Part shown: piece after piece, positions 4,353 through 46,913 of the stretch | Layout: each line of letters opens with the position of its first letter | Numbering within the stretch: the stretch's first letter is position 1 | Sequence record: MK327931.1 | Length of the DNA: 64,000 nucleotides | DNA from: Escherichia phage vB_EcoM_G17 | Reading direction: 5' to 3' (one strand) | The notes under the pieces: model-generated | What the model saw: only the letters and a program-made list of their open reading frames with translations | Database searches by the model: none | What the model was told of the DNA's origin: nothing | Position numbers and translations under genes: made by a program

Positions 4353-4380
4353 ATTATATCACATCGTTTCAACTTGTCAA
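4353..4380 (-). promoter_or_regulatory. sigma70-type promoter TTGACA-16-TATAAT
   Basis: Minus strand reads TTGACAAGTTGAAACGATGTGATATAAT. Confidence 0.5.
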
Positions 4381-4446
4381 TCACTTTTTTTCTTTTTTTT
4401 TCAAACTCACATCTTGTGTCGCTTGAAAACTTTATGTCTGATGCTT

Positions 4447-4474
4447 ATTGTATCACATCATTCTATCTTGTCAA
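4447..4474 (-). promoter_or_regulatory. sigma70-type promoter TTGACA-16-TACAAT (tandem with previous)
   Basis: Minus strand reads TTGACAAGATAGAATGATGTGATACAAT; shares GATGTGATA spacer core with first copy. Confidence 0.45.
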
Positions 4475-4498
4475 CATTTATTTTTAATTCATTTTTTC

Positions 4499-4879
4499 TT
4501 ACATATGAATAGAAAATAACTGTTTAAAATCGTCACAACACAATGTTAATTCAGTTATTATCATTGCATCTGTCAGATATATGTACTGACCTTCAACATA
4601 ATAAGGTGAAGTACATATTCTGTCAAGTGATGTAAACATTATAGAACTTTTAAATTCTCTTTGCAAGGGGATTTTTGTAAATTCATAAAGATTATTTTCT
4701 TTACAAATTCCATACCCAAACTTGCTAAGACGTAAACCACCGCCAGTTCTGAAATTTTCAAAAATTGACATCAGAAGCATACGGTCTGTTATTTCTGAAT
4801 CTGATTCATGTACTTCCCTAACTTTGGAAAGTACATTATTTTGATATTCAGTACTGTTATGTGATGGTTCTGGAAACAT
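4499..4879 (-). CDS. hypothetical protein (126 aa)
   Basis: ORF on minus strand, 3 nt from next gene. Confidence 0.5.
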   Translation of the reverse strand: MFPEPSHNSTEYQNNVLSKVREVHESDSEITDRMLLMSIFENFRTGGGLRLSKFGYGICKENNLYEFTKIPLQREFKSSIMFTSLDRICTSPYYVEGQYIYLTDAMIITELTLCCDDFKQLFSIHM

Positions 4880-31425: not shown

Positions 31426-31902
31426 TTACATGTATACTTTTTTTAAATCCTTAGAACAACGATCAAAAATTGTGTTTATGAATTCAACATCTTCGATAAT
31501 ATTCGAATCGTTAGCAACATTTTCATTTCTTGTCGTGTTCCTATATGTGTGTTCAGGATGATTGTATACCACCTTGACTACATTATTTAGGTCTATAAAA
31601 TTTGACGTTTTTTGCGTATAGGAAGCCTGAAGCTTGATGAGTTTACCATCATTCTCAAGATTGGTTTTATGAATTAGTTCTTCAATGCCAGTTAAATGGC
31701 TATAGCTATCTTTTTCTTTTACAAAAGTAATAGTAACAAGAACTGCTTTCTCATCTCCCATATCGGAAATGTTTTTTACAGCACTGATAATTTCTAAGTT
31801 TGAAAAATCTAATTCTTTAAGCATTTTACAAATATTTCCACAAAGTTCGATAAGTGATAATTTCTTCTCTGGTAACAGAAACTTCATTGCACTTAACACC
31901 AT
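31426..31902 (-). CDS. hypothetical protein (start uncertain; ATG at 31824 would avoid 77-nt overlap)
   Basis: ORF; alternative in-frame ATG 31824 abuts upstream stop. Confidence 0.45.
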   Translation of the reverse strand: MVLSAMKFLLPEKKLSLIELCGNICKMLKELDFSNLEIISAVKNISDMGDEKAVLVTITFVKEKDSYSHLTGIEELIHKTNLENDGKLIKLQASYTQKTSNFIDLNNVVKVVYNHPEHTYRNTTRNENVANDSNIIEDVEFINTIFDRCSKDLKKVYM

Positions 31903-34011: not shown

Positions 34012-34043
34012 ATAAAAAAAGAGAACTCCATATGAAGTTCTCT
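34012..34043 (-). terminator. rho-independent terminator after large depolymerase-like gene
   Basis: Hairpin AGAGAACT-TCATATGG-AGTTCTCT followed by TTTTTTTAT on minus strand. Confidence 0.6.
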
Positions 34044-34074
34044 GATTATACATAATTACTTTTTCTATGTCAAG

Positions 34075-36864
34075 TTATAAATCACGGAAACGATTTGGTG
34101 TGTTTAAGCGGTACATTGAGTATAATCCCAATCCACGCATAATCTCACCTGCCCAGAAACCAAAAAACATACCATTATCAGTACCTTCTCTAACTGCTGG
34201 ACTCCATGAACCATTCATTGGAGAACCTGGACTTACAATAACATAGTTCTTTTGAAGTTCGAGAACTAAGTTATCAGCGAGTGTTGTTAGACCTTCTATT
34301 TTACATCCAGCCAATCCAGCAGCACAAGCCCCAGCTAACCACAACCCACACATATGACCTGTAAAGTCCCAATCTGGACCTTCAACTGTGCCATCTTTAT
34401 TGAAGATTGTTGGTGAACGACCATCATTATCTTTTTGAAATTGAATTAAAAAGTGAATCCAATTCTCACAAAATTCAACAAGATCTGCTGGTGGTTCAAT
34501 TCCTCTCTCTGCGAGTTCTTGCCATGCTCTGGCAGCCCCAAAGAACGCACGTGGTTCATACCCACTCCATGCTTGATCACCCCAATGTAGCATAGTAAAT
34601 GTATCTGGTTCACCATATTTTAAGTTATCCCAGCGGTTCCAAACATATGCTTGTGCACATGGACCAACAGTACCGAATTGTTGAGTAAACCATGTTTGAG
34701 AATCTTTCATAAAGCTTAACATGTTGCCTAAACGTGTGTTATCAACTGGTTGGTCTTTAAAACAATATATCACAGGATATTGATAACCTGGATACGGTAA
34801 ACCACGCCATCCTGAATACTGGTTCGCATACGGGTCAGTGATGTTAGAAAATGGTATTGTTCCTGGTGTGTAATGCAATGAGTTTAACAAATAATCCTTG
34901 ATTACACAATCCCCTAACTGTGCAGTATATGGTGATTCACCTGCAATTGTTATTGAAAATGTCATAGTATAGTCATCACCGTCAGCATCCGTGTATAATT
35001 CTGGAATGTCATTAATACAATACCAATCAATTATTGCAGCAACACCATCTACTGGGGTTGTATCAGGTAAAATAGTAATATCTTCTAGTTCACTATAAAC
35101 TGGTGCATCTGGTCTTGGGTCAGAACTTGGATGATTTGGCTGATACCCAGATAAACGTAATGTATCGGAACTTAGTGTGATTGTAGTCCATTCCCCGTGT
35201 GTTGCAGGAATCATCCACCACCATCTCCAACCATTATCATCTACAATTCTTATATTGTAATCATCTTCATATGAACGATAGGTAAAAGATTTAACTTCAG
35301 ACTTATTTGTTGCTAATAGCCAAAATCCAATAACAGCACCATCATCTTCACCACAAACTAACTGATTAATGGTATCGCGGCGTGTAACTAATATATCAGT
35401 ACTATATATCATTTCGGACGTAGCTGCACCATAAGGAACAACAATTCTACTATCAGCAATTATATAAGGGGAACCATCTGCTTTCTTTTCTCTAACAAAT
35501 GCACTTAAAGGTGTTAATGAATGTGTGATATTTTGGTCTTTACTTTCCGGTAAGCCACAACGATAACGAACAACATCATGGTCATTTTTTGTTTTTGACA
35601 ATTCCAGTACTGGTTTAAATGATAACGGCTTACCATCATCACATACACCACCATAGTCTACAAGTAATTTAGAATCAGCATTGACCCTGAACCAAATAGC
35701 TTGTTGTTCCATAGTACTTTGTGCACTTTGGTCTTGCCTGATAGTAATATATCCTAGAGAATTTCTACCAAACTTAGCAATAGCATCACTAGGATAAAAA
35801 TATTCATAGGAAATACCATCAGTGAATGGTGTGGTTACAATTGTACTTTGTCTGAAAAATTTATCTCTGGAGTCAATATCACCATAAGCATAACACGTTA
35901 GTAGTGAACATTTCCAACCCAAATAATGTTTTCTTTCTTTTGTTATTTTATATAACAAATAAGAAGCATCACTAAACCATAATTCTGCATCTGATGCGTT
36001 ATCAGCAAATTCCAAATCAATTGGAACATGAAGAGGGCGGTTGTGTTGCATTTCATTTCGTTGAATTATCACACCACCATATTCTACTGGTTGACGATTT
36101 GCAAAATTTAATTTATATACACCATTAATTGTTGTATTCTTTAATTGAACAGTTCCTTTTTCCGATTCGTCAAAACCTTCTGCTAAAATATTACCATCCC
36201 AGTCGATTTTTCTACCCATGAAATCGATAATCCAGTCAACATCATATTGTTCACCTGGTGTATCCCAATCAACACTACCATCTGGTAATAATGCTTTTAC
36301 TGACGCATTTATTTGGTTCCATGCTAAAGCACCTTTGAATGCAAATGTTACTTTATCCAAGAACTGACCATAATAAGGTGCACCATGTGGTATTTTACAT
36401 TGTCCATTTGTAAATGTAAATTCTACACCCTTGAAACCACCATGTGTAGGCCATCCATCATCAGCTAAAGGCCAGTTAGCCAATATAGGTTCTTTGGCAT
36501 TAACTATCCAGTTACATTGTAGTGGTGTAGGTGGATCTGGTAATTCACGTCCAGCATAAAAGTACTGATGATATGCGTCCCAATACCACTTTGCCTTATC
36601 TAAAAACATTGGATCATTTGTTGCCAGATACGCATAAATGTATCCTAAAATTAATAGACTTTGACCTTCTGTTGTCCCGTCACCGTTTGGTTGACCTTCC
36701 ATTGCAGAATAGTTAATAAAATGACGGTTGTTCGCCAAAACACCCTGATTATTCACCACATAATGTTGTACTGTTGGATCTATAGTATCACCAGTATTTC
36801 TTTCAATAAACTTATGATGCCCATAAAGAAGTTGTACTATATTATCAATATTATTGTTTAACAT
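34075..36864 (-). CDS. large Trp/aromatic-rich protein (929 aa), candidate carbohydrate-active tailspike/depolymerase
   Basis: Long ORF; Trp, Tyr, Gly and Pro enriched; composition unlike neighbours; last gene of nucleotidyltransferase operon. Confidence 0.45.
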   Translation of the reverse strand: MLNNNIDNIVQLLYGHHKFIERNTGDTIDPTVQHYVVNNQGVLANNRHFINYSAMEGQPNGDGTTEGQSLLILGYIYAYLATNDPMFLDKAKWYWDAYHQYFYAGRELPDPPTPLQCNWIVNAKEPILANWPLADDGWPTHGGFKGVEFTFTNGQCKIPHGAPYYGQFLDKVTFAFKGALAWNQINASVKALLPDGSVDWDTPGEQYDVDWIIDFMGRKIDWDGNILAEGFDESEKGTVQLKNTTINGVYKLNFANRQPVEYGGVIIQRNEMQHNRPLHVPIDLEFADNASDAELWFSDASYLLYKITKERKHYLGWKCSLLTCYAYGDIDSRDKFFRQSTIVTTPFTDGISYEYFYPSDAIAKFGRNSLGYITIRQDQSAQSTMEQQAIWFRVNADSKLLVDYGGVCDDGKPLSFKPVLELSKTKNDHDVVRYRCGLPESKDQNITHSLTPLSAFVREKKADGSPYIIADSRIVVPYGAATSEMIYSTDILVTRRDTINQLVCGEDDGAVIGFWLLATNKSEVKSFTYRSYEDDYNIRIVDDNGWRWWWMIPATHGEWTTITLSSDTLRLSGYQPNHPSSDPRPDAPVYSELEDITILPDTTPVDGVAAIIDWYCINDIPELYTDADGDDYTMTFSITIAGESPYTAQLGDCVIKDYLLNSLHYTPGTIPFSNITDPYANQYSGWRGLPYPGYQYPVIYCFKDQPVDNTRLGNMLSFMKDSQTWFTQQFGTVGPCAQAYVWNRWDNLKYGEPDTFTMLHWGDQAWSGYEPRAFFGAARAWQELAERGIEPPADLVEFCENWIHFLIQFQKDNDGRSPTIFNKDGTVEGPDWDFTGHMCGLWLAGACAAGLAGCKIEGLTTLADNLVLELQKNYVIVSPGSPMNGSWSPAVREGTDNGMFFGFWAGEIMRGLGLYSMYRLNTPNRFRDL

Positions 36865-36865
36865 G

Positions 36866-37402
36866 TCATACTCCTGCTCTAATCAATGCACCGTACCATG
36901 TAACTCCTTTATCGTATGTTTCTAATGAAATAATATCTTTTTCACCAATTTCATAAGAAAGAACAACTGGTCTATTATATGACCATTTAACATTAGATCC
37001 CCAATTAACGAGGTTAGACCCTGTTTGCTGAGTTAATAGGATAGTAATTGAATAAACTTCAGTAGGAGCAGCACCAATAGCAATAGTGGTATTTCTGTCA
37101 GATAAATTAATATTAAAAACTGTATTACCTGATAGGGGATTAATTAAAATATTATTAGAACTCAATACATTATATAATTTGTTACTAGCACTATCATACA
37201 ATGTTACCCATTCTGTTTCATGATTCTCATTAGTAGCTTTAGCTTTTATTTTTACATTATTTTCGGAAGAAGTCATTCCAGTCCAGCCAGAAATAATAAA
37301 AGAACTGTTTTTATTTGTTCCAAATGATGCAATTACTGAATCACTAAGAGAACTATCTTCACCGTCAATAGATCCGAGTACTGACAATGTTAAAACCATC
37401 AT
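36866..37402 (-). CDS. hypothetical protein (178 aa), possibly the C-terminal part of a frameshift-split gene
   Basis: Overlaps 37365..37565 in another frame across an A5 run. Confidence 0.4.
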   Translation of the reverse strand: MMVLTLSVLGSIDGEDSSLSDSVIASFGTNKNSSFIISGWTGMTSSENNVKIKAKATNENHETEWVTLYDSASNKLYNVLSSNNILINPLSGNTVFNINLSDRNTTIAIGAAPTEVYSITILLTQQTGSNLVNWGSNVKWSYNRPVVLSYEIGEKDIISLETYDKGVTWYGALIRAGV

Positions 37403-37565
37403 TTTTAATGTCTACACCAGTTGCACCTGAAAAATTATTTTGAAATTTAATAACTCCGGTAGTGTGGATATCTGTGAAAATTTGTTGTGCCATACTTAAT
37501 CCTTGCGTTAATTTATATTGAGTATTTATTGAGTATAATGGCATTTTTAGTACCATTATACTCAT
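37365..37565 (-). CDS. hypothetical protein (66 aa), possibly the N-terminal part of a frameshift-split gene
   Basis: Starts just after nucleotidyltransferase stop; ends inside overlap with 36866..37402. Confidence 0.35.
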   Translation of the reverse strand: MSIMVLKMPLYSINTQYKLTQGLSMAQQIFTDIHTTGVIKFQNNFSGATGVDIKNDGFNIVSTRIY

Positions 37566-37570
37566 GTATG

Positions 37571-38803
37571 TTACTTATACCATTGCATTTCTCTGATATC
37601 AATGATAATTTTTGATGCTAATTTAATGTTTGGTTTTTTGGGAAGTACTGATTTCTTATATAGAACATCACGAATGTATTGTACTTTATCATCGAAATAT
37701 TCTAATACTTCTTCATACTTCCACTTACCATTACGAATATCCATCAACATTTGTGCATCAGGTCGTTTAACTTGAATAATTCCACTCTGTAAAGCTTCTT
37801 CTGCACTATTCAAAAGTCTAATTGTGTGCATAGCATGTTTACAATCGTATCCGTGTTGTGATTCTAAAACAGCACGTTTGGCATTACGATTTTCTTTCCA
37901 TTTATGATAACTTTTCCTATTCTCACTATTCTCCTGATATTCTTTTTCGTTAAATTTTACAATTAGTTCTGGTTTGGTTTTCAACTCTTCAGTACTACGT
38001 TCTTTTGAAAAATAACGCAATGAACCATCATGGTTAATAGTGCTTTCATTAGGATTCTTAACAATCGCAAAAATGTTTTCTCCGTAATGAATTAGTTCAT
38101 AACCATTATTAAAATTCAATAAATTGAAATCACGATCAAGAATTTTTTCAGTAGTGTAGTTATGCACTAATCTTACGAAATGATATTGCTTTAATGGATT
38201 TTTCGAAACTAACTGCAATGATGTATCACGCATATATTTTTCAAAATCAATCTTTTTAGCATTAAATGGATGTAAGTTGGATGTATCTAAACGTTCAACA
38301 AGATACTGTGGGAATGAATCATACATCCACGCAAGAACCTCATCGACAGGGTGTTCTTCTAAAATCTCATTTAATCGTTTTTCAGCAATACGCTCTTTAT
38401 CCATCCAACCGTGATGATTTGTCATACGCTTAATCTGATTATATGCATATCCAGTGTATGAAAATGCAATCTTGGAACTAAGAAGTTTTTGGTTAAATGA
38501 ACGAAGATAGTCATAAATTTCAGTACTTTCCACAATGTGTTCAGGTTCAACCCAAAGTGATTCAAGAATATTAGGGTTAGCTTCAGTGTATAATTTTAAA
38601 TACTGATTCAACTCATAGAATTTAGTATCTTCTTCGCTTTTGTCAGCTACCTCTTTGACCTTATAGAAGGGTGTAAGAATAAATTCTTTATTAGCAAGAA
38701 AAATACCACGATAATCAGTATCACTTTCCGGTGTACTGGTTCCGTAGGCTTGTGACCCAGCCAAGTGTTTCACTATTGTTTGTTCAATATATTGGTTATT
38801 CAT
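37571..38803 (-). CDS. Pol-beta-superfamily nucleotidyltransferase (predicted NTase of RNA-repair-associated type)
   Basis: N-terminal hGSxAYGxxxxxSDxDxRGIF signature: LAGSQAYGTSTPESDTDYRGIF. Confidence 0.65.
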   Translation of the reverse strand: MNNQYIEQTIVKHLAGSQAYGTSTPESDTDYRGIFLANKEFILTPFYKVKEVADKSEEDTKFYELNQYLKLYTEANPNILESLWVEPEHIVESTEIYDYLRSFNQKLLSSKIAFSYTGYAYNQIKRMTNHHGWMDKERIAEKRLNEILEEHPVDEVLAWMYDSFPQYLVERLDTSNLHPFNAKKIDFEKYMRDTSLQLVSKNPLKQYHFVRLVHNYTTEKILDRDFNLLNFNNGYELIHYGENIFAIVKNPNESTINHDGSLRYFSKERSTEELKTKPELIVKFNEKEYQENSENRKSYHKWKENRNAKRAVLESQHGYDCKHAMHTIRLLNSAEEALQSGIIQVKRPDAQMLMDIRNGKWKYEEVLEYFDDKVQYIRDVLYKKSVLPKKPNIKLASKIIIDIREMQWYK

Positions 38804-39201
38804 AGATAAATTGTTAACTCCTTTAAGAAACCATTATAATAACGATTAAAGTCATGTTCTAATGTTTTATAATCATCAAAACTAAAACCTAAATTGATAA
38901 TTGTATCTTCTTGAAAGAAAGTTTCTTCATTCATACATTCAATAGGTTCGTAATTAATTCCACCTTTGAAAACTTTTGTAAAAAACATTCCATCATTATT
39001 AATTTCAACATACATAAAATTATTTTCTGGGTCACGAGGACAGACGATATTCAGTGAACTATTTCCACTTGTATTGTACTCATAAGAAATTATATCAAAA
39101 GAATCAATACCATAACACTTAGATTTTTCTTTATCGCCAAATACTTTTCTATCTGTACTCATATTGCGTATAGTGCTATAGATATCATCAACTGTAGTCA
39201 T
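38800..39201 (-). CDS. hypothetical protein (133 aa)
   Basis: ORF; 4-nt coupling overlaps on both sides. Confidence 0.5.
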   Translation of the reverse strand: MTTVDDIYSTIRNMSTDRKVFGDKEKSKCYGIDSFDIISYEYNTSGNSSLNIVCPRDPENNFMYVEINNDGMFFTKVFKGGINYEPIECMNEETFFQEDTIINLGFSFDDYKTLEHDFNRYYNGFLKELTIYL

Positions 39202-39203
39202 AG

Positions 39204-39713
39204 TTAACCACCATACTTTGACTTGTATGTTTCAAGTGATAAAGATATACGATTTTGCTTTTTAATTCTTTCATCAATATCCTTTGAATTCTTCACACTT
39301 CGGTATACGTCAGCTAATAAATTATAATCTTCTTTATTTGAGCTATGCTGTGTCCAACCTATGTCTGTTTTAATACGAACATTTGCTTTATTTGACGAGT
39401 AAAAGAAACTGAAACCATTTGACCCATCAAAAATATCAAAAGTATCTACCCAATCACCATAAGGAAAACTCATCGGGACTGACTCGTGGTCGATTGTGAT
39501 ATCCGATAAATTTTTTGAACAGTACTTCGCAAAGTGATAAACAATTGGATCACATTTAGATAATTCATATTTGTATTCAATGATAGTTTTTCTATTAGCA
39601 TCATTGATAGCATATTCTTTCATCAATGGGCTTTTTTTGATGATAAGAGTCCACAGAAACGATTCTAATCCGGTTTCATCAACTTTTTGTTTCTTTTTGA
39701 AAAATGAAATCAT
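39204..39713 (-). CDS. hypothetical protein, tandem paralog 3 of 3
   Basis: Shared motif DANRKTIIEYKYELSK with two upstream genes. Confidence 0.55.
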   Translation of the reverse strand: MISFFKKKQKVDETGLESFLWTLIIKKSPLMKEYAINDANRKTIIEYKYELSKCDPIVYHFAKYCSKNLSDITIDHESVPMSFPYGDWVDTFDIFDGSNGFSFFYSSNKANVRIKTDIGWTQHSSNKEDYNLLADVYRSVKNSKDIDERIKKQNRISLSLETYKSKYGG

Positions 39714-40231
39714 TTATATAAACCCTTAATTTTCTGTCTATTATGTATATCATTTTGCTGGATTTTCAATTTAGTAAGGTTGTTTCTTACACCTTCAACT
39801 CCACGCATTATTTGTAACATAATTAGTGATTCGTCATATGTTAGTACATTGCTATTATTATCGATATATACTTTCACTCCACTTTCAAGATAATCATTTT
39901 CTTTGGAGTTAAAGTTTCTAATAGCAAACTTAACGCCATTTGATGTATCACTGAAAACATATCGTTCCGCACCGTAGAATGTTTTTCCACGAAATAAACC
40001 GCCGTCTTCCCACTTCCAACGACTAGATTCATAATCATTAACGTAATCAATGATTAAAGAAAGTAAAGGGTGTTTGCTCAATTTATATTTTGCATCTAAC
40101 AGGATACGTCTATCATTATCTGTGGTGATAATATCCTTTAGTGAGTAGCTTTTAGATATAATTTTAAAGATAATTTCATGCCAAATTAAAGTACTGTTTT
40201 GTTTTCCAACTGATCCAAAAAACATATCCAT
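39710..40231 (-). CDS. hypothetical protein, tandem paralog 2 of 3
   Basis: Shared motif DNDRRILLDAKYKLSK. Confidence 0.55.
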   Translation of the reverse strand: MDMFFGSVGKQNSTLIWHEIIFKIISKSYSLKDIITTDNDRRILLDAKYKLSKHPLLSLIIDYVNDYESSRWKWEDGGLFRGKTFYGAERYVFSDTSNGVKFAIRNFNSKENDYLESGVKVYIDNNSNVLTYDESLIMLQIMRGVEGVRNNLTKLKIQQNDIHNRQKIKGLYK

Positions 40232-40237
40232 TCCTCA

Positions 40238-40804
40238 TTAGTATAAATCAGTAATGTCTTTGTATGCATTAATCTGTTTTTGTTGTAATGAAAGTTCATT
40301 GAGTTTAGTTACCATTTTATCTACACCAACACGTGTATAGAAAATAATAAATGAATCTAAATTGCCTAGAGTAATTCTTGAACTGAAATTTGAAAGTTTT
40401 CTTGCATAAACATAAATTTCTTCTTCACTTGGTAAACGTTTCTCAATCGGCCAGCTTTCCACACCATTCGGCTCATAATCGATTTCAAATTCAACTCCCA
40501 TCACTGTGTCTTGAATGAGATCCGTATATGAACCACCGTAAAAATACTCTCTTGGTTTGGCTCTCCAACGAGGACTAAATGGGTCAGATGCGTATTCTTT
40601 TACAAATTTGTAAAAGGACATTTTACTGAGCATATACTTCATCTCAATTAGTGCTTTGCGGTCATCATCAGTTTTAAACTCTGCTTTGAGCGATGGACTT
40701 TTACACAGTAACTTAACTAAATTGATGTACATCTTTAATGTACGTTGTTCTTTCATTTCTTTGATTTTGTGACGTTTTGGTGGCGGTAATAAAGATTTGA
40801 CCAT
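40238..40804 (-). CDS. hypothetical protein, tandem paralog 1 of 3
   Basis: Shared motif DDDRKALIEMKYMLSK; AGGAGG RBS. Confidence 0.55.
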   Translation of the reverse strand: MVKSLLPPPKRHKIKEMKEQRTLKMYINLVKLLCKSPSLKAEFKTDDDRKALIEMKYMLSKMSFYKFVKEYASDPFSPRWRAKPREYFYGGSYTDLIQDTVMGVEFEIDYEPNGVESWPIEKRLPSEEEIYVYARKLSNFSSRITLGNLDSFIIFYTRVGVDKMVTKLNELSLQQKQINAYKDITDLY

Positions 40805-40826
40805 AATTTCCTCCTATTTTTATTCA

Positions 40827-40855
40827 ATTATACACATAAAAGAAAAGCCCGTCAA
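40827..40855 (-). promoter_or_regulatory. sigma70-type promoter TTGACG-17-TATAAT driving the paralog/NTase/depolymerase operon
   Basis: Minus strand TTGACGGGCTTTTCTTTTATGTGTATAAT, then AGGAGG RBS and ATG at 40804. Confidence 0.5.
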
Positions 40856-40867
40856 TAGACGAGCTTT
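40837..40867 (-). terminator. terminator-like hairpin after tail-fibre-like gene (overlaps -35 of next promoter)
   Basis: GCTCGTCTATTGACGGGC then TTTTCTTTT on minus strand. Confidence 0.45.
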
Positions 40868-40871
40868 AAAT

Positions 40872-43601
40872 TTATTTCCAACGTGTACCTGGACCTGATG
40901 GTACACCAGTACTGGCAGGTATCGCTGAACCACGTTTCGTTGTACTTGGACGATATGTCAAAAAACGAGTTACTTTTTCTGTATCAATTGAAGTTATTCC
41001 TGAAGTTCCAGTAACTATCTTACCAATGTAAGTGCTAGTTAAAGATTCATCAATTGTTTCAGTACTAATAACATATGACGCTTTCTTAGTATTCCTGTTC
41101 ATTTGTATATACAAATAGAACGTAGTATTAGCTGGGTTACTTTTTACAGTACTTAAATCAACACTTTGTATAGGTAGTCTGTCGAAAATTCCACCTAAAA
41201 ACACCGGAACTTCACGTGTAAAGTACACTGAGAATCCTTGTGCAACGTCTTGTGATACTACCACAATCTTTTCTTTAACGCTACCATTTCCACTAATTAA
41301 ACCATCCATTTCAGCAGATGTTGTACCAAAAACGCTGAATACAGATTTGGTTTGATAGTCAGAATCTTGAAAATTGTAATATCCAAAACCAACACCAGGA
41401 ATAACACCATGTTGATATGCTGCACCAAGTTGGATGTAACTAGATGATAAAAAACGATTTGATGTTATGACACCATCTACTGTTTTAGCTATCATCATCT
41501 TAAATTGTGCATTACCTGGTTGTGAAAATTGATGAACAGCATCAACACCAATGTAACCAAATCCTGAATATTTTGCAACTGTTAGACCAGTACAACGTTT
41601 CATATATGCTTCAGTAATAATTCCTGTAACAGAACTAAGTGTCTCATATCTAGTACTTACCAATGTAGCTGAAGTTATGTTAGATCCAGATAATACAACA
41701 TCAACTTCGGCATAGATTGCATAACCTTGGTTATTGTTAAGATTATATGCTGAAACTACTGCAATGGATTTAGAAAAAGTATTATCAGGTACATAATATA
41801 ATACAATTTGTCCAGATAGTGTACCAACAATGCCAGAGTTTCCTAGATTAGCAAAAATATCTTGTTTTAATGATTCTAATACCGTTGGTTCTATTGTATA
41901 TGTTTCATCAAATTCTAAAGTATCTGGGTTTAATAATCCACCACTTGTTTTATATACACCTTCAATGAATGATGTTCCATAACATCTAACACTACCATCG
42001 GTATCAACAAGAGAAATCATAGCAGTGTATGTAAAATCATCACCTATTTGTTTACGATTAGATTGTGGTGCAAAACCATTTAATGTAGTATTATTTTGAA
42101 CTGAGTTATATTGATATGTTGGTTGTGAGCCTATTTCAGAAAAAACAGTATTATTATAATTATATGTTACATCATCATACGTACCAGAACATGCTAATAA
42201 TATTTTTCTATTATCGATGAAACGTACACCTAATAGGTTTGCACCAACAGCACTACCAAAAACTGGTAAAACGTTTGCATTTATAACGTTACTTGCGGAT
42301 CTAGTACTAGCAACCCATGAATCAAACGGTGTACCACTAACCTTATATCGTTGTAGACCATAAAATTCAGTTGAACTCCATCTAAATTTAGATGCAAATA
42401 CTAAACCATCTTTGGTTTGACATAAACCACCTGCGTTTCCTAATACACCAGCAGCAGTTGTCCCAGTAAAGTTGACCATATTGATTTCAAATGGGTTAGA
42501 AACTTGAAATCCATTATCATATGAAACTGTAGCAGGAGCACGAGCAGAACCATCTAGTGACATAGATTTTGAGTTTATATTATAAACAAAACTGATACCA
42601 GTACCATACACTGTTGAAATATATAAAGGTGTAACCATTCTATGGGTTGGGTATAAAGTTACACGTATTTTGGATAAATCAGTACTAACGTTTGCTTGTA
42701 TATTAAAGTCTGTATAATCCGAAAATTCTACACGTGAGACTGGTGATGTAACTTCGAATAATGAATCCGAGCTAGTACCAACACTATATAATCTATCAAA
42801 CACTCTTATGTTATTAGATGCAGAATAACTTGTATTTCGAACAGTTTGCCCTGATAATCCAGTAACTTTTGTTAATGATGCCATTGAGCTTGCTTTCACA
42901 TCACTTAGCTCTACTGTATAAATTGAAAGTGCTAATCCTAAATTAGAAACACTTTTATCTTTACACCAAATATATACTTTTGTTCCAACAATATGAGTAT
43001 ATATAGGCATATCATTACCAAAAGAAGTACTTGGTACTTTAGCATGAATATGTGATACTTCGTTGAATGTACCATTAGTTATAGTAAAAATATAATTATC
43101 TTCTGTACTTAAACATCCAAGCATTTCATAACCATTAGAGCCAATAAAATACTTAATATTCTCTGTACTACTCATAATTGAAGGTTTATACATTGAATTG
43201 GTTGAAATAACACTTTCTTGTGAAATCATGGTTATATTTCTGATTTCTCGTATAAATGAATAATAAAAACCTTTAGTACTACCATTGGTTCCGCTACGCA
43301 GAACAACGGCGGTTCCATCATCTTCAATAATTGTTGGCTGAACTACTTGGTCACTTGACATAGGTGTAGCACCTTCATACGACCCACTTACGTTTAATGG
43401 CAAGTAATCCATTTCTCCTACACGTGATATAGGCAACATATCTAAAATACTTTGAACTTCTGAACGCTTATATATTGGATATTGAACAATTCCAGTATTG
43501 GCATTCGGTGAGGTTCCATTAAAAGTACGCATAGCGTACCTTTGTCCAATTGCCAAGTTCCCAAGGATCTCGGCACTTCCTATAATTCGTTTTGATGACA
43601 T
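40872..43601 (-). CDS. large tail-fibre-like structural protein (about 909 aa from ATG at 43601), paralog of 44217..46913
   Basis: S/T/N/G-rich; N-terminal and C-terminal regions paralogous to 898-aa gene; start chosen by paralog alignment (ORF extends to 43691). Confidence 0.55.
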   Translation of the reverse strand: MSSKRIIGSAEILGNLAIGQRYAMRTFNGTSPNANTGIVQYPIYKRSEVQSILDMLPISRVGEMDYLPLNVSGSYEGATPMSSDQVVQPTIIEDDGTAVVLRSGTNGSTKGFYYSFIREIRNITMISQESVISTNSMYKPSIMSSTENIKYFIGSNGYEMLGCLSTEDNYIFTITNGTFNEVSHIHAKVPSTSFGNDMPIYTHIVGTKVYIWCKDKSVSNLGLALSIYTVELSDVKASSMASLTKVTGLSGQTVRNTSYSASNNIRVFDRLYSVGTSSDSLFEVTSPVSRVEFSDYTDFNIQANVSTDLSKIRVTLYPTHRMVTPLYISTVYGTGISFVYNINSKSMSLDGSARAPATVSYDNGFQVSNPFEINMVNFTGTTAAGVLGNAGGLCQTKDGLVFASKFRWSSTEFYGLQRYKVSGTPFDSWVASTRSASNVINANVLPVFGSAVGANLLGVRFIDNRKILLACSGTYDDVTYNYNNTVFSEIGSQPTYQYNSVQNNTTLNGFAPQSNRKQIGDDFTYTAMISLVDTDGSVRCYGTSFIEGVYKTSGGLLNPDTLEFDETYTIEPTVLESLKQDIFANLGNSGIVGTLSGQIVLYYVPDNTFSKSIAVVSAYNLNNNQGYAIYAEVDVVLSGSNITSATLVSTRYETLSSVTGIITEAYMKRCTGLTVAKYSGFGYIGVDAVHQFSQPGNAQFKMMIAKTVDGVITSNRFLSSSYIQLGAAYQHGVIPGVGFGYYNFQDSDYQTKSVFSVFGTTSAEMDGLISGNGSVKEKIVVVSQDVAQGFSVYFTREVPVFLGGIFDRLPIQSVDLSTVKSNPANTTFYLYIQMNRNTKKASYVISTETIDESLTSTYIGKIVTGTSGITSIDTEKVTRFLTYRPSTTKRGSAIPASTGVPSGPGTRWK

Positions 43602-43617
43602 CTTTCTTTTCCTTAAT

Positions 43618-44205
43618 TTACCAACCAATTGTACCAGTTTCTGATGGTTTTCCAGTACTGACTGGGAATGAAGAACCTTTTTGTGTAACACTAGGTCTAT
43701 ATGTACTAAATCTGGATACTTTATTAATGTTTATATTTGTAATACCACTTGTACCAACGGTCAGTGTTCCAATAAACATTATAATTTCAGATTCTTGTAT
43801 TTGTGTTGGTGATATTTTATAAATTGGTTCACCGAGAACTAACGTTGCATATACATATTGTGTTTGTGTTCCAGATGAAACAGTTGAAGCAAAAATAGAA
43901 ACTGCTGGAAATTTATAAAGATAACCACCAATAAATGATGGTATCTGTCTATTAAATGTAAGACTATAGCCTGATGAAGTAATATTTAGACTAGCGTCAT
44001 CATACAATTCTCCGTATTGTGTAAGTGGTAATCCATTGACAATAAAGTTAACTTCATCTTTGGTAATAGAGGGGAATGTACATTCCCCATTTGAATTTGT
44101 TGGGTAATAAGTCATATTATTACCTAATACACCAAGTCCAGTACTTTTACCCTGTACTGTAACTTGTTGCATTGCCTTAAGGTCTGCTCTTATTTTAAAT
44201 GCCAT
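43618..44205 (-). CDS. small structural protein carrying the shared C-terminal module alone (195 aa)
   Basis: C-terminus TVGTSGITNININKVSRFSTYRPSVTQKGSSFPVSTGKPSETGTIGW matches C-termini of both flanking large proteins. Confidence 0.55.
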   Translation of the reverse strand: MAFKIRADLKAMQQVTVQGKSTGLGVLGNNMTYYPTNSNGECTFPSITKDEVNFIVNGLPLTQYGELYDDASLNITSSGYSLTFNRQIPSFIGGYLYKFPAVSIFASTVSSGTQTQYVYATLVLGEPIYKISPTQIQESEIIMFIGTLTVGTSGITNININKVSRFSTYRPSVTQKGSSFPVSTGKPSETGTIGW

Positions 44206-44216
44206 TATGTAATCCT

Positions 44217-46913
44217 TTACCAGTTTATGGTTCCTGTTTGTGATGGTAGACCGTAGCTAACTGGGAACGATGAACCTGCTGATTCAAGTGAAGCACCAAA
44301 TATATCTAAACGTGAACGTTTTTGTATATTAATAGTTTCGATTTGAATTGCGTTAGTTTGAATAGTACCTATCCAAAAAATATTATATGCAGTTGTTCCT
44401 GTTTCGGAAATAACATCAGTAGTTATGTAGTAGTTTGCCAACCCTTGTTCTAATTTAACATATACATAAAATGTTGTATTTGCTGGATTAGATTTTATAG
44501 TTCTCAAATCAATATTTGAAACTGGTAGTGTAAAAGACTTACCTGATAGTATAACTGGTGTTTCCTCTGTAAAATAAACAATAAACCCTTGAGCAACGTC
44601 TTGTGATACTACGTTAATTGGGCTACCTTGTGGAGTCCAGTTATTATAGTCGGCTATCGTTGTTCCATATTTTTGAAATGACATTTTATTTGTATAATCC
44701 AGTGGATCAAAAATACCAAATCCAATACCAGGCAACGCAGTGGGTTGTCTTCCTTGTTCATAACTGGCATGAGAACCAGTAATAACAAAACTTGTAAATT
44801 GTGCAGTTGATTTAGTTACATATGCTCTAAATTGATGAGTTGCTGTATTTCCTATTGTTGGATGTGTTAATGGGTCAGAACCACCAATGAAGTAGAATGA
44901 ACCACCATCATAAATTGTTAACCCAACAGAAGAAGATGCAATCGAACCATTACCATTAGGTGTAAAGTTTTCACCATATGTATTTTCTAGTACTAAACGC
45001 TTAAAGGTAATAGATGTTATATTTCCAACTCTAGTATTAACGTTAACTTCAGCAATTCTAATATAGTTTTTATAGTCATTTGTTATAGTACTCAACATAA
45101 CAAAAGCCGGAATGTCAGTTTGTTGTGGAACAAATAATGTCATATCACGATAAGCTTGTGAAGATAAGTTCCAGTCACTTAGAACTTTAGCATATTCTGT
45201 ATTTCTAAAGTTATCTAGAACTGATTGTGTAACACTAATAACACCAGTACCATTTAAGTTTTTATCATATGAAAATGATTGTGAATAACGTTGACCAACC
45301 ATAAAAATACCGCCATTAGTTGTTACAGTTGAACCTGAAATACTACTAATGAAAATTCTATTATTGGCATTATCATCTACATAACCACGTTCAGTTGTAG
45401 GTTCATAACCTTGTATGGTTCCTAAAGATAATGATTTAAATGTAAAATTAGGAGTACTTTTATGAACTGCATATGATGGTCTAAACCCACCACTACCAGA
45501 CGCACGTGAATATTGTTTAGTACTATTATCTGGTAACAACTCCACACCATTAATAAATGAACCAACTGCTGAACCAAAGGATGGTCTAACAACTCCACCT
45601 TTAAAATCAGTTGATTGTACTGCACGAACGTTAATCATACTATAAACAATTTGTATAGGAAACTTTGCTTTTTGCATAAGTAATGGTTCTGCTAAGTTTG
45701 GACACACAGTACAAAAAGCTTCACCTGAACTTAAGTAAAAATAAGAACTATAAATGTTTCTTGCATTAGCATGATTATATAATGGATCATTATTTAAAAC
45801 GTTACCTGTAGGCACTAATGCAGAACCAGTATTGGTTATAACCAATGGTGCTTGATATGAACCTATGTCATTCCCAGCGTCTAGGGTGCATTGTTTAGTA
45901 CTCATATTAAATGCAAAGCTGTAGCTATGTTGTGGTCGGGCATTATATGTCGCCATTGTAAACCATGCATCACCATTCATTCTAAAACGAAAGTTCTGTG
46001 TTCCTGGTTGCTGTGCAACATACAAATCAATGGATGTCATATAAATCCCAATACCACGTAGGTTTTGTGGTACATACACATAAGGCTTATCTGCTATATT
46101 AGTTGAAGTTACTTGATTAGTAATAACCATGTTATTCTGTGCAGAATAAGTTGTATTATAGAATGTTTTTGTAGTCCATCCTGTAATACGAGTTGCCGTA
46201 TATGTTCCATTGCTAATATTATATACAACTCGGACAACAACTAACTGTAGTTGGTTATTTTCATTAAGAACACTAAAGACATAGATTGAACCATCTTCAG
46301 CCATCATTGCAAATTCTATACCACCTTCAGGGCAAATATCTGCTTGATTTACAAAAAAACCAGTATGTAATTTATCATCTAATGTACCATTAGTAATAGA
46401 AATAAACAATCCATTAGTACTGTTAGAAGTGTCTACATATCTACCGAGTAAAATATTTGGATCAGTATTGTATAAGCCAATTGCGACGCGATTTGAACCG
46501 AAAAAACCAGGCTTGTATTGACGACTGGTGTTAATTGTACGGCTCATGTCATCAACTGATAATGCGTTAGCCAAATATGAATAATATAATCCCTCAACAC
46601 TACCGTTTGTACCACTACGTAATAATACGAGTGTACCATCGTTTTCTAATAAAATTTTATTTCTACGTTGGGACTGGTTTTCAGATGCACCATTGAAATC
46701 ACCAGATACACCAGCAGGAAGATAGTTTTGTGACCCATAATGGGAAATTGGCATCATACTGACGATATCTAGTACTTCATCTCTTGAATAAGTATCTAGC
46801 TCCATATTGCCATTAGCATCAAATACTTGATCATTGATACCTTGTATTGTTCTTTTACCATTAACTGTCACATTATGTGTGACATCCAAGCCACCATATA
46901 TTTTCTTTGACAT
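44217..46913 (-). CDS. large tail-fibre-like structural protein (898 aa), paralog of 40872..43601
   Basis: Shared segments VVSQDVAQGF, TIKSNPANTTFY, PISHYG..YLP; TATAAATA motif upstream. Confidence 0.55.
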   Translation of the reverse strand: MSKKIYGGLDVTHNVTVNGKRTIQGINDQVFDANGNMELDTYSRDEVLDIVSMMPISHYGSQNYLPAGVSGDFNGASENQSQRRNKILLENDGTLVLLRSGTNGSVEGLYYSYLANALSVDDMSRTINTSRQYKPGFFGSNRVAIGLYNTDPNILLGRYVDTSNSTNGLFISITNGTLDDKLHTGFFVNQADICPEGGIEFAMMAEDGSIYVFSVLNENNQLQLVVVRVVYNISNGTYTATRITGWTTKTFYNTTYSAQNNMVITNQVTSTNIADKPYVYVPQNLRGIGIYMTSIDLYVAQQPGTQNFRFRMNGDAWFTMATYNARPQHSYSFAFNMSTKQCTLDAGNDIGSYQAPLVITNTGSALVPTGNVLNNDPLYNHANARNIYSSYFYLSSGEAFCTVCPNLAEPLLMQKAKFPIQIVYSMINVRAVQSTDFKGGVVRPSFGSAVGSFINGVELLPDNSTKQYSRASGSGGFRPSYAVHKSTPNFTFKSLSLGTIQGYEPTTERGYVDDNANNRIFISSISGSTVTTNGGIFMVGQRYSQSFSYDKNLNGTGVISVTQSVLDNFRNTEYAKVLSDWNLSSQAYRDMTLFVPQQTDIPAFVMLSTITNDYKNYIRIAEVNVNTRVGNITSITFKRLVLENTYGENFTPNGNGSIASSSVGLTIYDGGSFYFIGGSDPLTHPTIGNTATHQFRAYVTKSTAQFTSFVITGSHASYEQGRQPTALPGIGFGIFDPLDYTNKMSFQKYGTTIADYNNWTPQGSPINVVSQDVAQGFIVYFTEETPVILSGKSFTLPVSNIDLRTIKSNPANTTFYVYVKLEQGLANYYITTDVISETGTTAYNIFWIGTIQTNAIQIETINIQKRSRLDIFGASLESAGSSFPVSYGLPSQTGTINW

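Follow-up and report, generated by a model that had tools for sequence, protein, structure and literature searches.

Why would a jumbo phage place a Pol-beta-type nucleotidyltransferase (NTase) behind four small proteins of no recognised family, and set all five genes between two groups of tail-fibre genes? The question is raised by positions 37,571 to 40,855 of a 64,000-nt stretch of Escherichia phage vB_EcoM_G17 (MK327931.1; the entire stretch is referred to as the window), for which an original prediction, made from the sequence alone, had proposed an early operon. We hold, with a little more confidence than doubt, that the five genes form an early unit transcribed by the host RNA polymerase, which would carry an RlaP-type RNA-end repair and counter-defence module and lie between two late tail-fibre units. 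An annotation of the enzyme and a review of its family exist already; the four small partners are lineage-restricted orphans.

The transcription unit and its boundaries

The 3.6-kb region is 100% identical to the equivalent part of Escherichia phage Sharanji (OR545507.1, 350 kb, genus Asteriusvirus), a RaK2-like jumbo phage, and 97-99% identical to 121Q, PBECO4, phAPEC6 and about 30 further RaK2-like jumbo coliphages. We use the gene names of the Sharanji GenBank annotation, gp456 to gp452, in which gp452 is labelled 'putative nucleotidyltransferase' and the other four genes 'hypothetical protein' (a window position equals the Sharanji record position minus 239,630). In order of transcription, the unit and its boundary elements are the following (dG, folding free energy; pI, isoelectric point):

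40844..40867, minus strand: intrinsic terminator hairpin, 10-bp stem followed by UUUUCUUUU (dG -14.4 kcal/mol, z -7.0)
40827..40855, minus strand: sigma-70-type promoter TTGACG-17-TATAAT, 11 of 12 consensus matches
40238..40804, minus strand: paralog 1 (gp456, 188 aa, pI 9.2; PHROG 18641)
39710..40225, minus strand: paralog 2 (gp455, 171 aa from the second ATG, reading frame open from 40231; PHROG 18641)
39204..39713, minus strand: paralog 3 (gp454, 169 aa, pI 8.7; PHROG 7868), ATGA overlap with paralog 2
38800..39201, minus strand: 133-aa acidic protein (gp453, pI 4.4; PHROG 22376)
37571..38803, minus strand: RlaP-family Pol-beta nucleotidyltransferase (gp452, 410 aa; PF10127), ATGA overlap with the 133-aa gene
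37530..37564, minus strand: 14-bp hairpin lacking a U-tract, immediately past the stop codon of the NTase gene (dG -17.8 kcal/mol, z -6.1)
37510..37529, minus strand: late-promoter-like motifs ATAAATA (37529-37523) and TATAAATT (37517-37510), of the type described for phage CBB (PMC5259590)

The predicted promoter is thus present on the minus strand, the 133-aa and 410-aa open reading frames do follow the paralogs, and the view of the block as a tightly packed transcription unit with its own sigma-70-type promoter is borne out. Its genes had also been said to be joined throughout by 4-nt start/stop overlaps, which holds at only two of the four junctions (paralog 2/paralog 3 and 133-aa/NTase). 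Paralog 3 and the 133-aa gene are 2 nt apart, and paralogs 1 and 2 are separated by 6 nt, or by 12 nt if paralog 2 starts at its second, better-spaced ATG at 40225, which fits the spacing of a GAGGA ribosome-binding site and is the GenBank choice.

The -10 hexamer ends 22 nt ahead of the first start codon, and an AGGAGG ribosome-binding site precedes this ATG at 40804. Because the window holds 18 sites that match at least 11 of the 12 sigma-70 positions, against 4.9 +/- 2.3 in shuffled sequences, and because 16 of the 18 lie on the coding strand, coincidence is an improbable account of the operon promoter. Eight phages have kept this site, among them 121Q, phAPEC6, Turkey3, A4, Turkey5 (with -10 TATACT), Erwinia phage Hallingskeid and Salmonella phage 7t3, and the combined promoter-hairpin element fronts the first paralog in Turkey3, A4, Turkey5, Hallingskeid and 7t3 despite flanking genes that are only 20-65% identical. 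In every phage compared, a hairpin rich in GC has TTGAC(A/G) as its loop and 3′ arm, and the T-run that follows the hairpin doubles as the promoter spacer. Across six phages 93% of the cells in the hairpin alignment are paired and four of the ten pairs have changed on both sides, so that this nesting of promoter and terminator has been kept across genera with compensatory changes. From the folding, the covariation and the T-run together we therefore read the hairpin as the terminator that closes the upstream late tail-fibre-like unit. The wider layout recalls the temporal promoter organisation of T4-type phages, with a consensus sigma-70 promoter before non-structural genes and TATAAATA-like motifs before virion genes. 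RpoD-like early and ATAAATA-type late promoters have been described for the relative CBB (PMC5259590), and what sets the present case apart is that its -35 hexamer is part of the hairpin that terminates the late unit before it.

That upstream unit encodes the fibre-like proteins gp459, gp458 and gp457 and is preceded, before gp459, by TATAAATA at 46955-46948, a late promoter of the T4 type. We also observed, comparing two of these proteins (region 40872-46913, minus strand), that gp458 and gp457 have near-identical C-termini, TYRPS..(K/R)GS..P.STG.PS..GT..W, with similar endings in homologues from distant phages.

At the downstream end, the late-promoter-like motifs precede the open reading frame of a 42-aa virion protein, followed by tail-fibre genes of 178 aa and 929 aa, and so mark the operon boundary. 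In phages with this tail-fibre insertion the early unit probably has its 3′ end at the 14-bp hairpin, in which we saw by eye apparent compensatory changes in 121Q, A4 and Turkey5. The hairpin might act as a U-less terminator or a processing site, or might stabilise the 3′ end. The tail-fibre cassette (34075-37565, minus strand) is present in 121Q, phAPEC6, A4 and Turkey5 and absent from the same site in Turkey3, RaK2, 7t3 and Hallingskeid, where other small genes start 13-20 nt after the NTase. Since it is missing from these four relatives and has its own late-promoter-like motifs, the co-oriented 'depolymerase-like' gene that had been linked to the operon is an incidental neighbour. The virion proteome of phAPEC6 contains proteins from both flanks, namely the 42-aa and 929-aa products (gp315c and gp314c being virion proteins) and, from upstream, the 898-aa protein, whereas the paralogs, the 133-aa protein and the NTase went undetected in it. 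Taken with the boundary motifs and hairpins, this distribution led us to regard the five genes as a host-polymerase unit between two late structural units.

Two further observations concern the downstream cassette. Sharanji gp451 (37365-37565, minus strand) is annotated as 66 aa, whereas the conserved family (phrog_29689, 121Q gp507, phAPEC6 gp315c) corresponds to its C-terminal 42 aa, read from an ATG at 37493, and phAPEC6 gp315c was found in virions at 69% peptide coverage; the gp451 start has probably been called too far upstream in Sharanji. Between the 929-aa fibre gene and an acyl-carrier-like gene, at 34020-34073 (minus strand), a perfect TTGACA-17-TATAAT promoter is followed at once by a 10-bp hairpin with a T-run (dG -13.8 kcal/mol), the reverse of the order at 40827-40867. 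Transcription of the acyl-carrier-like gene would begin anew there; in Turkey3 that gene comes straight after the NTase.

The nucleotidyltransferase gp452

gp452 scores above the curated gathering threshold of Pfam family PF10127 (RlaP; 59.6 bits against a cut-off of 23, E 4.9e-16) and matches phrog_388, 'nucleotidyltransferase', along its full length (1e-76 over residues 4-409); its orthologues on metagenomic contigs are precomputed as PF10127. A tblastn search with gp452 returned homologues in 658 phage records, with homology over the full length in RaK2-like and PVP-SE1-like phages (gp166 of Salmonella phage PVP-SE1) and over the N-terminal domain in NrdC.11 of the T4/Aeromonas type. The hGSxAYGxxxxxSDxDxRG signature on which the enzyme had been predicted holds on proper alignment: it reads A15-G-S-x-A-Y-G...S27-D28-x-D30-x-R-G33 in gp452, with D59 as a third acidic residue, and G16, S17, Y20, G21, S27, D28, D30, G33 and D59 are invariant among seven sequences that include the RaK2, PVP-SE1 and T4-type NrdC.11 homologues. 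gp452 therefore has the hG[GS] motif (G16, S17) and the three catalytic aspartates (D28, D30, D59) characteristic of the family. Its C-terminal 110 residues, which may correspond to the helical domain that forms the substrate cleft in RlaPs, are conserved with NrdC.11 homologues as well, with a set that is likewise invariant among the seven sequences (W302, R310, E314, G318, D320, K322, H326, R329). RlaP enzymes, T4 NrdC.11 and PVP-SE1 gp166 among them, share with it the Pfam family, the hGS...DxD and third-aspartate set and a C-terminal G-x-D-x-K-x-x-x-H-x-x-R region. No match was obtained in a profile search of gp452 against PDB sequences, which did not retrieve the PfRlaP crystal structure, or against the PADLOC library of defence systems and CD-NTases; RlaP is its sole Pfam match.

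On these alignments we place gp452 in the known RlaP/NrdC.11 family, whose described role in RNA repair, together with the lack of a match in the CD-NTase library, speaks against the nucleotide-modifying or signalling function at which the original prediction had hinted. RlaP is named for its association with RNA ligase and has been described as the most prevalent RNA-end NTase of jumbo phages, where it tracks RNA ligases (PMC7824862). A 2025 preprint reports that Pseudomonas RlaPs, which have three essential aspartates, add one or two nucleoside monophosphates to RNA 3′-OH ends, do not use DNA or protein, and restore aminoacylation to a tRNA from which one nucleotide is missing; T4 NrdC.11 is among the family members that it names (PMC12776372). 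By homology, the function of gp452 is most likely RNA 3′-end repair during an early fight over the host translation apparatus.

The genomic company of the gene can be compared with that of known RlaP/NrdC.11 systems. Like these, the phage encodes an RNA ligase 1, and RaK2 encodes both rnlA and pseT; the NTase gene lies close to a CCA-adding enzyme in PVP-SE1 and to Thg1 in Xanthomonas phage XaC1. gp452 differs in that it is not adjacent to a ligase, has about 150 internal residues more than NrdC.11 and is part of an operon with lineage-specific small proteins. We also observed, in the 7t3-like lineage and in three metagenomic contigs, a DUF4326 gene (L005, 4703-5011; L014, 5495-5803; L015, 5494-5814) between the paralogs and the 133-aa gene, which the Sharanji operon does not have. 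For DUF4326 a rhodanese-type phosphatase activity on ribose-linked phosphates has been predicted (PMC9503650); such a phosphatase would fit an end-healing theme, as the NTase needs 3′-OH ends.

The paralog block and the 133-aa protein

Paralogs 1 and 2 align over their full length at 29.5% identity (E 5e-15). BLAST aligns copy 3 with copies 1 and 2 in the N-terminal motif KS..LK...D..RK.LI..KY.LSK only, and the PHROG profiles of the paralogs cross-match over their full length (E 6e-12), which together confirm the predicted homology of the three tandem genes. All three are basic (pI 8.7-9.2) and match their PHROGs at full length (18641, 18641 and 7868; E 3e-85, 6e-80 and 6e-58). Searches of Pfam, NCBIfam, PADLOC and PDB sequences gave no meaningful match and no well-characterised structural family, and the original prediction had not recognised the family either. 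The family is also small, with 31 proteins found in an exhaustive HMMER search of 1.84 billion representatives and 12-13 relatives in word-indexed homologue searches. Apart from fragments and one repetitive 2278-aa protein, which we judged to be spurious, the 31 relatives are single-domain proteins of 150-197 aa.

Several leads on the fold or activity of the paralogs were discarded. One weak match linked paralog 3 to an HNH-endonuclease PHROG, in the C-terminal part of the latter (E 0.005), and another linked paralog 1 to DUF2290 (E 0.003); we set both aside because the other copies lack these matches. Tandem ADP-ribosyltransferases of the ModA/ModB kind were considered and dropped, as there is no conserved glutamate and the conserved D/R/K/Y/S residues lie within 15 residues of each other in predicted helices. 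AlphaFold2 gave an unusable model of paralog 1 from 12 sequences (predicted local distance difference test score, pLDDT, 51).

Iterative searches in the loci compared found three paralog copies in every Asteriusvirus and in the 7t3 group, two in RaK2 and at least one in Hallingskeid. The same succession of paralogs, 133-aa gene and RlaP gene occurs in RaK2, 7t3, Hallingskeid, A4, Turkey5 and three metagenomic contigs, with or without the DUF4326 gene ahead of the 133-aa gene and a gene of about 150 aa behind it. The XaC1 locus has the NTase and a homologue of the 133-aa protein and, by the same iterative search, no detectable paralogs. We noted there four consecutive genes of about 145-178 aa upstream of the NTase (L012, 3179-5008), one of which, XaC1_217, belongs to the 133-aa family; the other three are similar to one another, end in EYG and may represent an independent tandem expansion at the same operon position.

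Within the genus, Sharanji and A4 share 86% identity in the NTase, 60% in the 133-aa protein and 32-39% in the paralogs. Between Sharanji and Turkey3 the pattern is reversed, the paralog block being 86-98% identical at the DNA level and both flanks 68-82%, and synonymous divergence rises from 0.14 in paralog 1 to saturation in the 133-aa and NTase genes across the paralog 3/133-aa boundary. At its other end the recombination block stops at the terminator (73% identity in the 3′ end of the adjacent fibre gene against 91-98%). The terminator-promoter element and the paralog 3/133-aa junction thus seem to delimit an exchanged cassette, the paralog block. Diversifying selection, which the triplication had been taken to suggest, is not what close comparisons indicate: the ratio of nonsynonymous to synonymous divergence of the paralogs is 0.09-0.22, that is, purifying selection, and the triplication is old, since the copies are shared across Asteriusvirus, 7t3 and RaK2. 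The remaining support for an arms race would be the much faster long-term divergence of the paralogs and the evidence of cassette exchange.

The 133-aa protein is the more constant companion of the enzyme. Members of its family occur in 51 phage records, all RaK2-like (27-100% identity), with the gene upstream of the NTase in every RaK2-like phage examined, sometimes with one gene of about 150 aa in between. gp453 matches PHROG 22376 at full length (E 1.5e-83), gave no meaningful match in Pfam, NCBIfam or PADLOC, and is unrelated to the paralogs by profile-profile comparison. An AlphaFold2 model from a 29-sequence alignment is confident (pLDDT 92.3; predicted template modelling score 0.85) and runs from an N-terminal helix through seven strands and two helices to a last strand; a structure search with this model found no significant match among solved structures, with the Mam33/p32 (gC1qBP) family of acidic trimeric proteins as a possible fold relative. 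From its constant position we infer that gp453 is an accessory or partner protein of the NTase.

Rfam and tRNA scans of the window were empty. Three near-consensus sigma-70 promoters stand in tandem within 270 nt at 4353-4626 (minus strand), two of them preceded by A-rich tracts, which looks like a strong early control region. Sharanji gp443, at 31426-31887 (minus strand; L001, 3027-3488), a few genes downstream and near an HNH endonuclease, strongly matches Pfam DUF7325 (E 1e-54).

Weighing the readings

We propose that the operon would be transcribed by the host RNA polymerase with sigma-70, probably early in infection by a RaK2-like jumbo phage, and that gp452 would act as a template-independent nucleotidyltransferase of the RlaP/NrdC.11 type on damaged RNA ends. 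The phage's genes for RNA ligase 1 and polynucleotide kinase lie in other parts of its genome, and their products could then reseal the RNA, so that translation goes on. gp453, translationally coupled to the NTase here, would assist the enzyme, and the basic paralogs, a lineage-specific and fast-diverging exchanged cassette, would through the shared promoter act in the same early phase of host interaction or counter-defence. What the analysis shows is the gene structure, the conservation of promoter and terminator, the family and catalytic residues of the NTase, and the distribution and selection pattern of the genes; when the unit is expressed, which RNA the enzyme acts on and what the small proteins might do are the parts of this scheme that we infer.

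Several points weigh against it. The label 'early' is taken from the promoter type and from descriptions of the relatives CBB and PA5oct, and the literature yielded no transcriptome data for any Asteriusvirus. A search for RnlA and PseT homologues detected no RNA ligase, kinase or phosphatase in the operon or the 64-kb window; the nearest ligase, the Sharanji RnlA homologue at 316,885-318,024 of that record, is on the same strand and 38 kb away, so that gp452 lacks the RNA ligase neighbourhood of RlaP. T4 NrdC.11 is presumably likewise not adjacent to its ligase. The paralogs and gp453 have no detectable homology to anything of known function in profile searches and, for gp453, in the structure search. 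The paralog block and the NTase differ in recombination history, which, together with the XaC1 NTase, argues that the paralogs are not obligate partners of the enzyme. Finally, the alignment of gp452 with PF10127 spans profile positions 24-144 of 249, the N-terminal half only, to which a T4-type NrdC.11 homologue also aligns; RaK2-type enzymes have, relative to NrdC.11, an insertion of about 150 residues that parts the catalytic from the C-terminal region; and RlaP biochemistry is confined to Pseudomonas enzymes (PMC12776372), whereas gp452 belongs to the phage clade.

The last three points would also favour a substrate other than damaged RNA ends, such that the enzyme makes a nucleotide second messenger, nucleotidylylates proteins or modifies phage DNA, especially as Pol-beta NTases are functionally very diverse and the large insertion is unique to the phage clade. 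We consider this quite improbable, given that RlaP is the only family matched, with no CD-NTase or defence matches, that the characterised RlaPs act on RNA and not on DNA or protein (PMC12776372), and that relatives of the gene lie beside tRNA enzymes. The paralogs, and perhaps gp453, might be stand-alone host-takeover or anti-defence effectors that merely share the promoter of the NTase, a view we regard as doubtful and still worth serious attention. Targets that vary between host strains would explain the quick divergence and swapping of the cassette, as seen in the contrast with the NTase between Sharanji and A4 and in the sharp rise in synonymous divergence against Turkey3, and the tiny, lineage-restricted family and the lack of detectable paralogs in XaC1 point the same way; however, no PADLOC or anti-defence-related family was matched, the dN/dS values (nonsynonymous over synonymous) give no sign of positive selection, and the place directly upstream of the 133-aa gene and RlaP is kept in every lineage that has paralogs. 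That the paralogs are instead chaperones, adaptors or other host-range accessory proteins for the neighbouring fibres is suggested by their location between two fibre gene clusters and their fibre-like hypervariability, and chaperones too would be missing from a virion proteome. This idea is weakened and seems hardly credible: a conserved terminator parts the paralogs from the upstream fibre gene, their promoter is of the sigma-70 and not the late type, Turkey3, RaK2 and 7t3 keep them in the absence of the downstream fibre cassette, and there is no similarity to known chaperone families. The terminator and the separate promoter speak against co-transcription with the fibres, and the end of the recombination block at the terminator, by which the cassette does not co-vary with the adjacent fibre gene, itself argues against a fibre-chaperone role.

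A bolder version of our preferred reading, an early repair and counter-defence unit, would make gp453 and the paralogs new phage partners of RlaP within one module of a new kind, with gp453 as a hub or chaperone of Mam33-like or new fold and the paralogs as rapidly diversifying, cassette-exchanged target-recognition or inhibitor subunits, which might guide the repair NTase to certain damaged tRNAs or block the anticodon nucleases of the host. We think this unlikely. Returning to the early unit itself, the interest that remains lies in the fast-diverging exchanged paralog block, in gp453, which, as a confidently modelled domain with nothing significantly similar among solved structures, offers an inexpensive subject for structure determination, and in the terminator-embedded promoter, a neat and conserved switch from a late unit to a host-polymerase unit. 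If the reading is true, RaK2-like jumbo phages express an RNA 3′-end repair enzyme from a host-type promoter alongside four orphan proteins, and the operon would be a concrete place to seek new factors against tRNA-cleaving bacterial defences.

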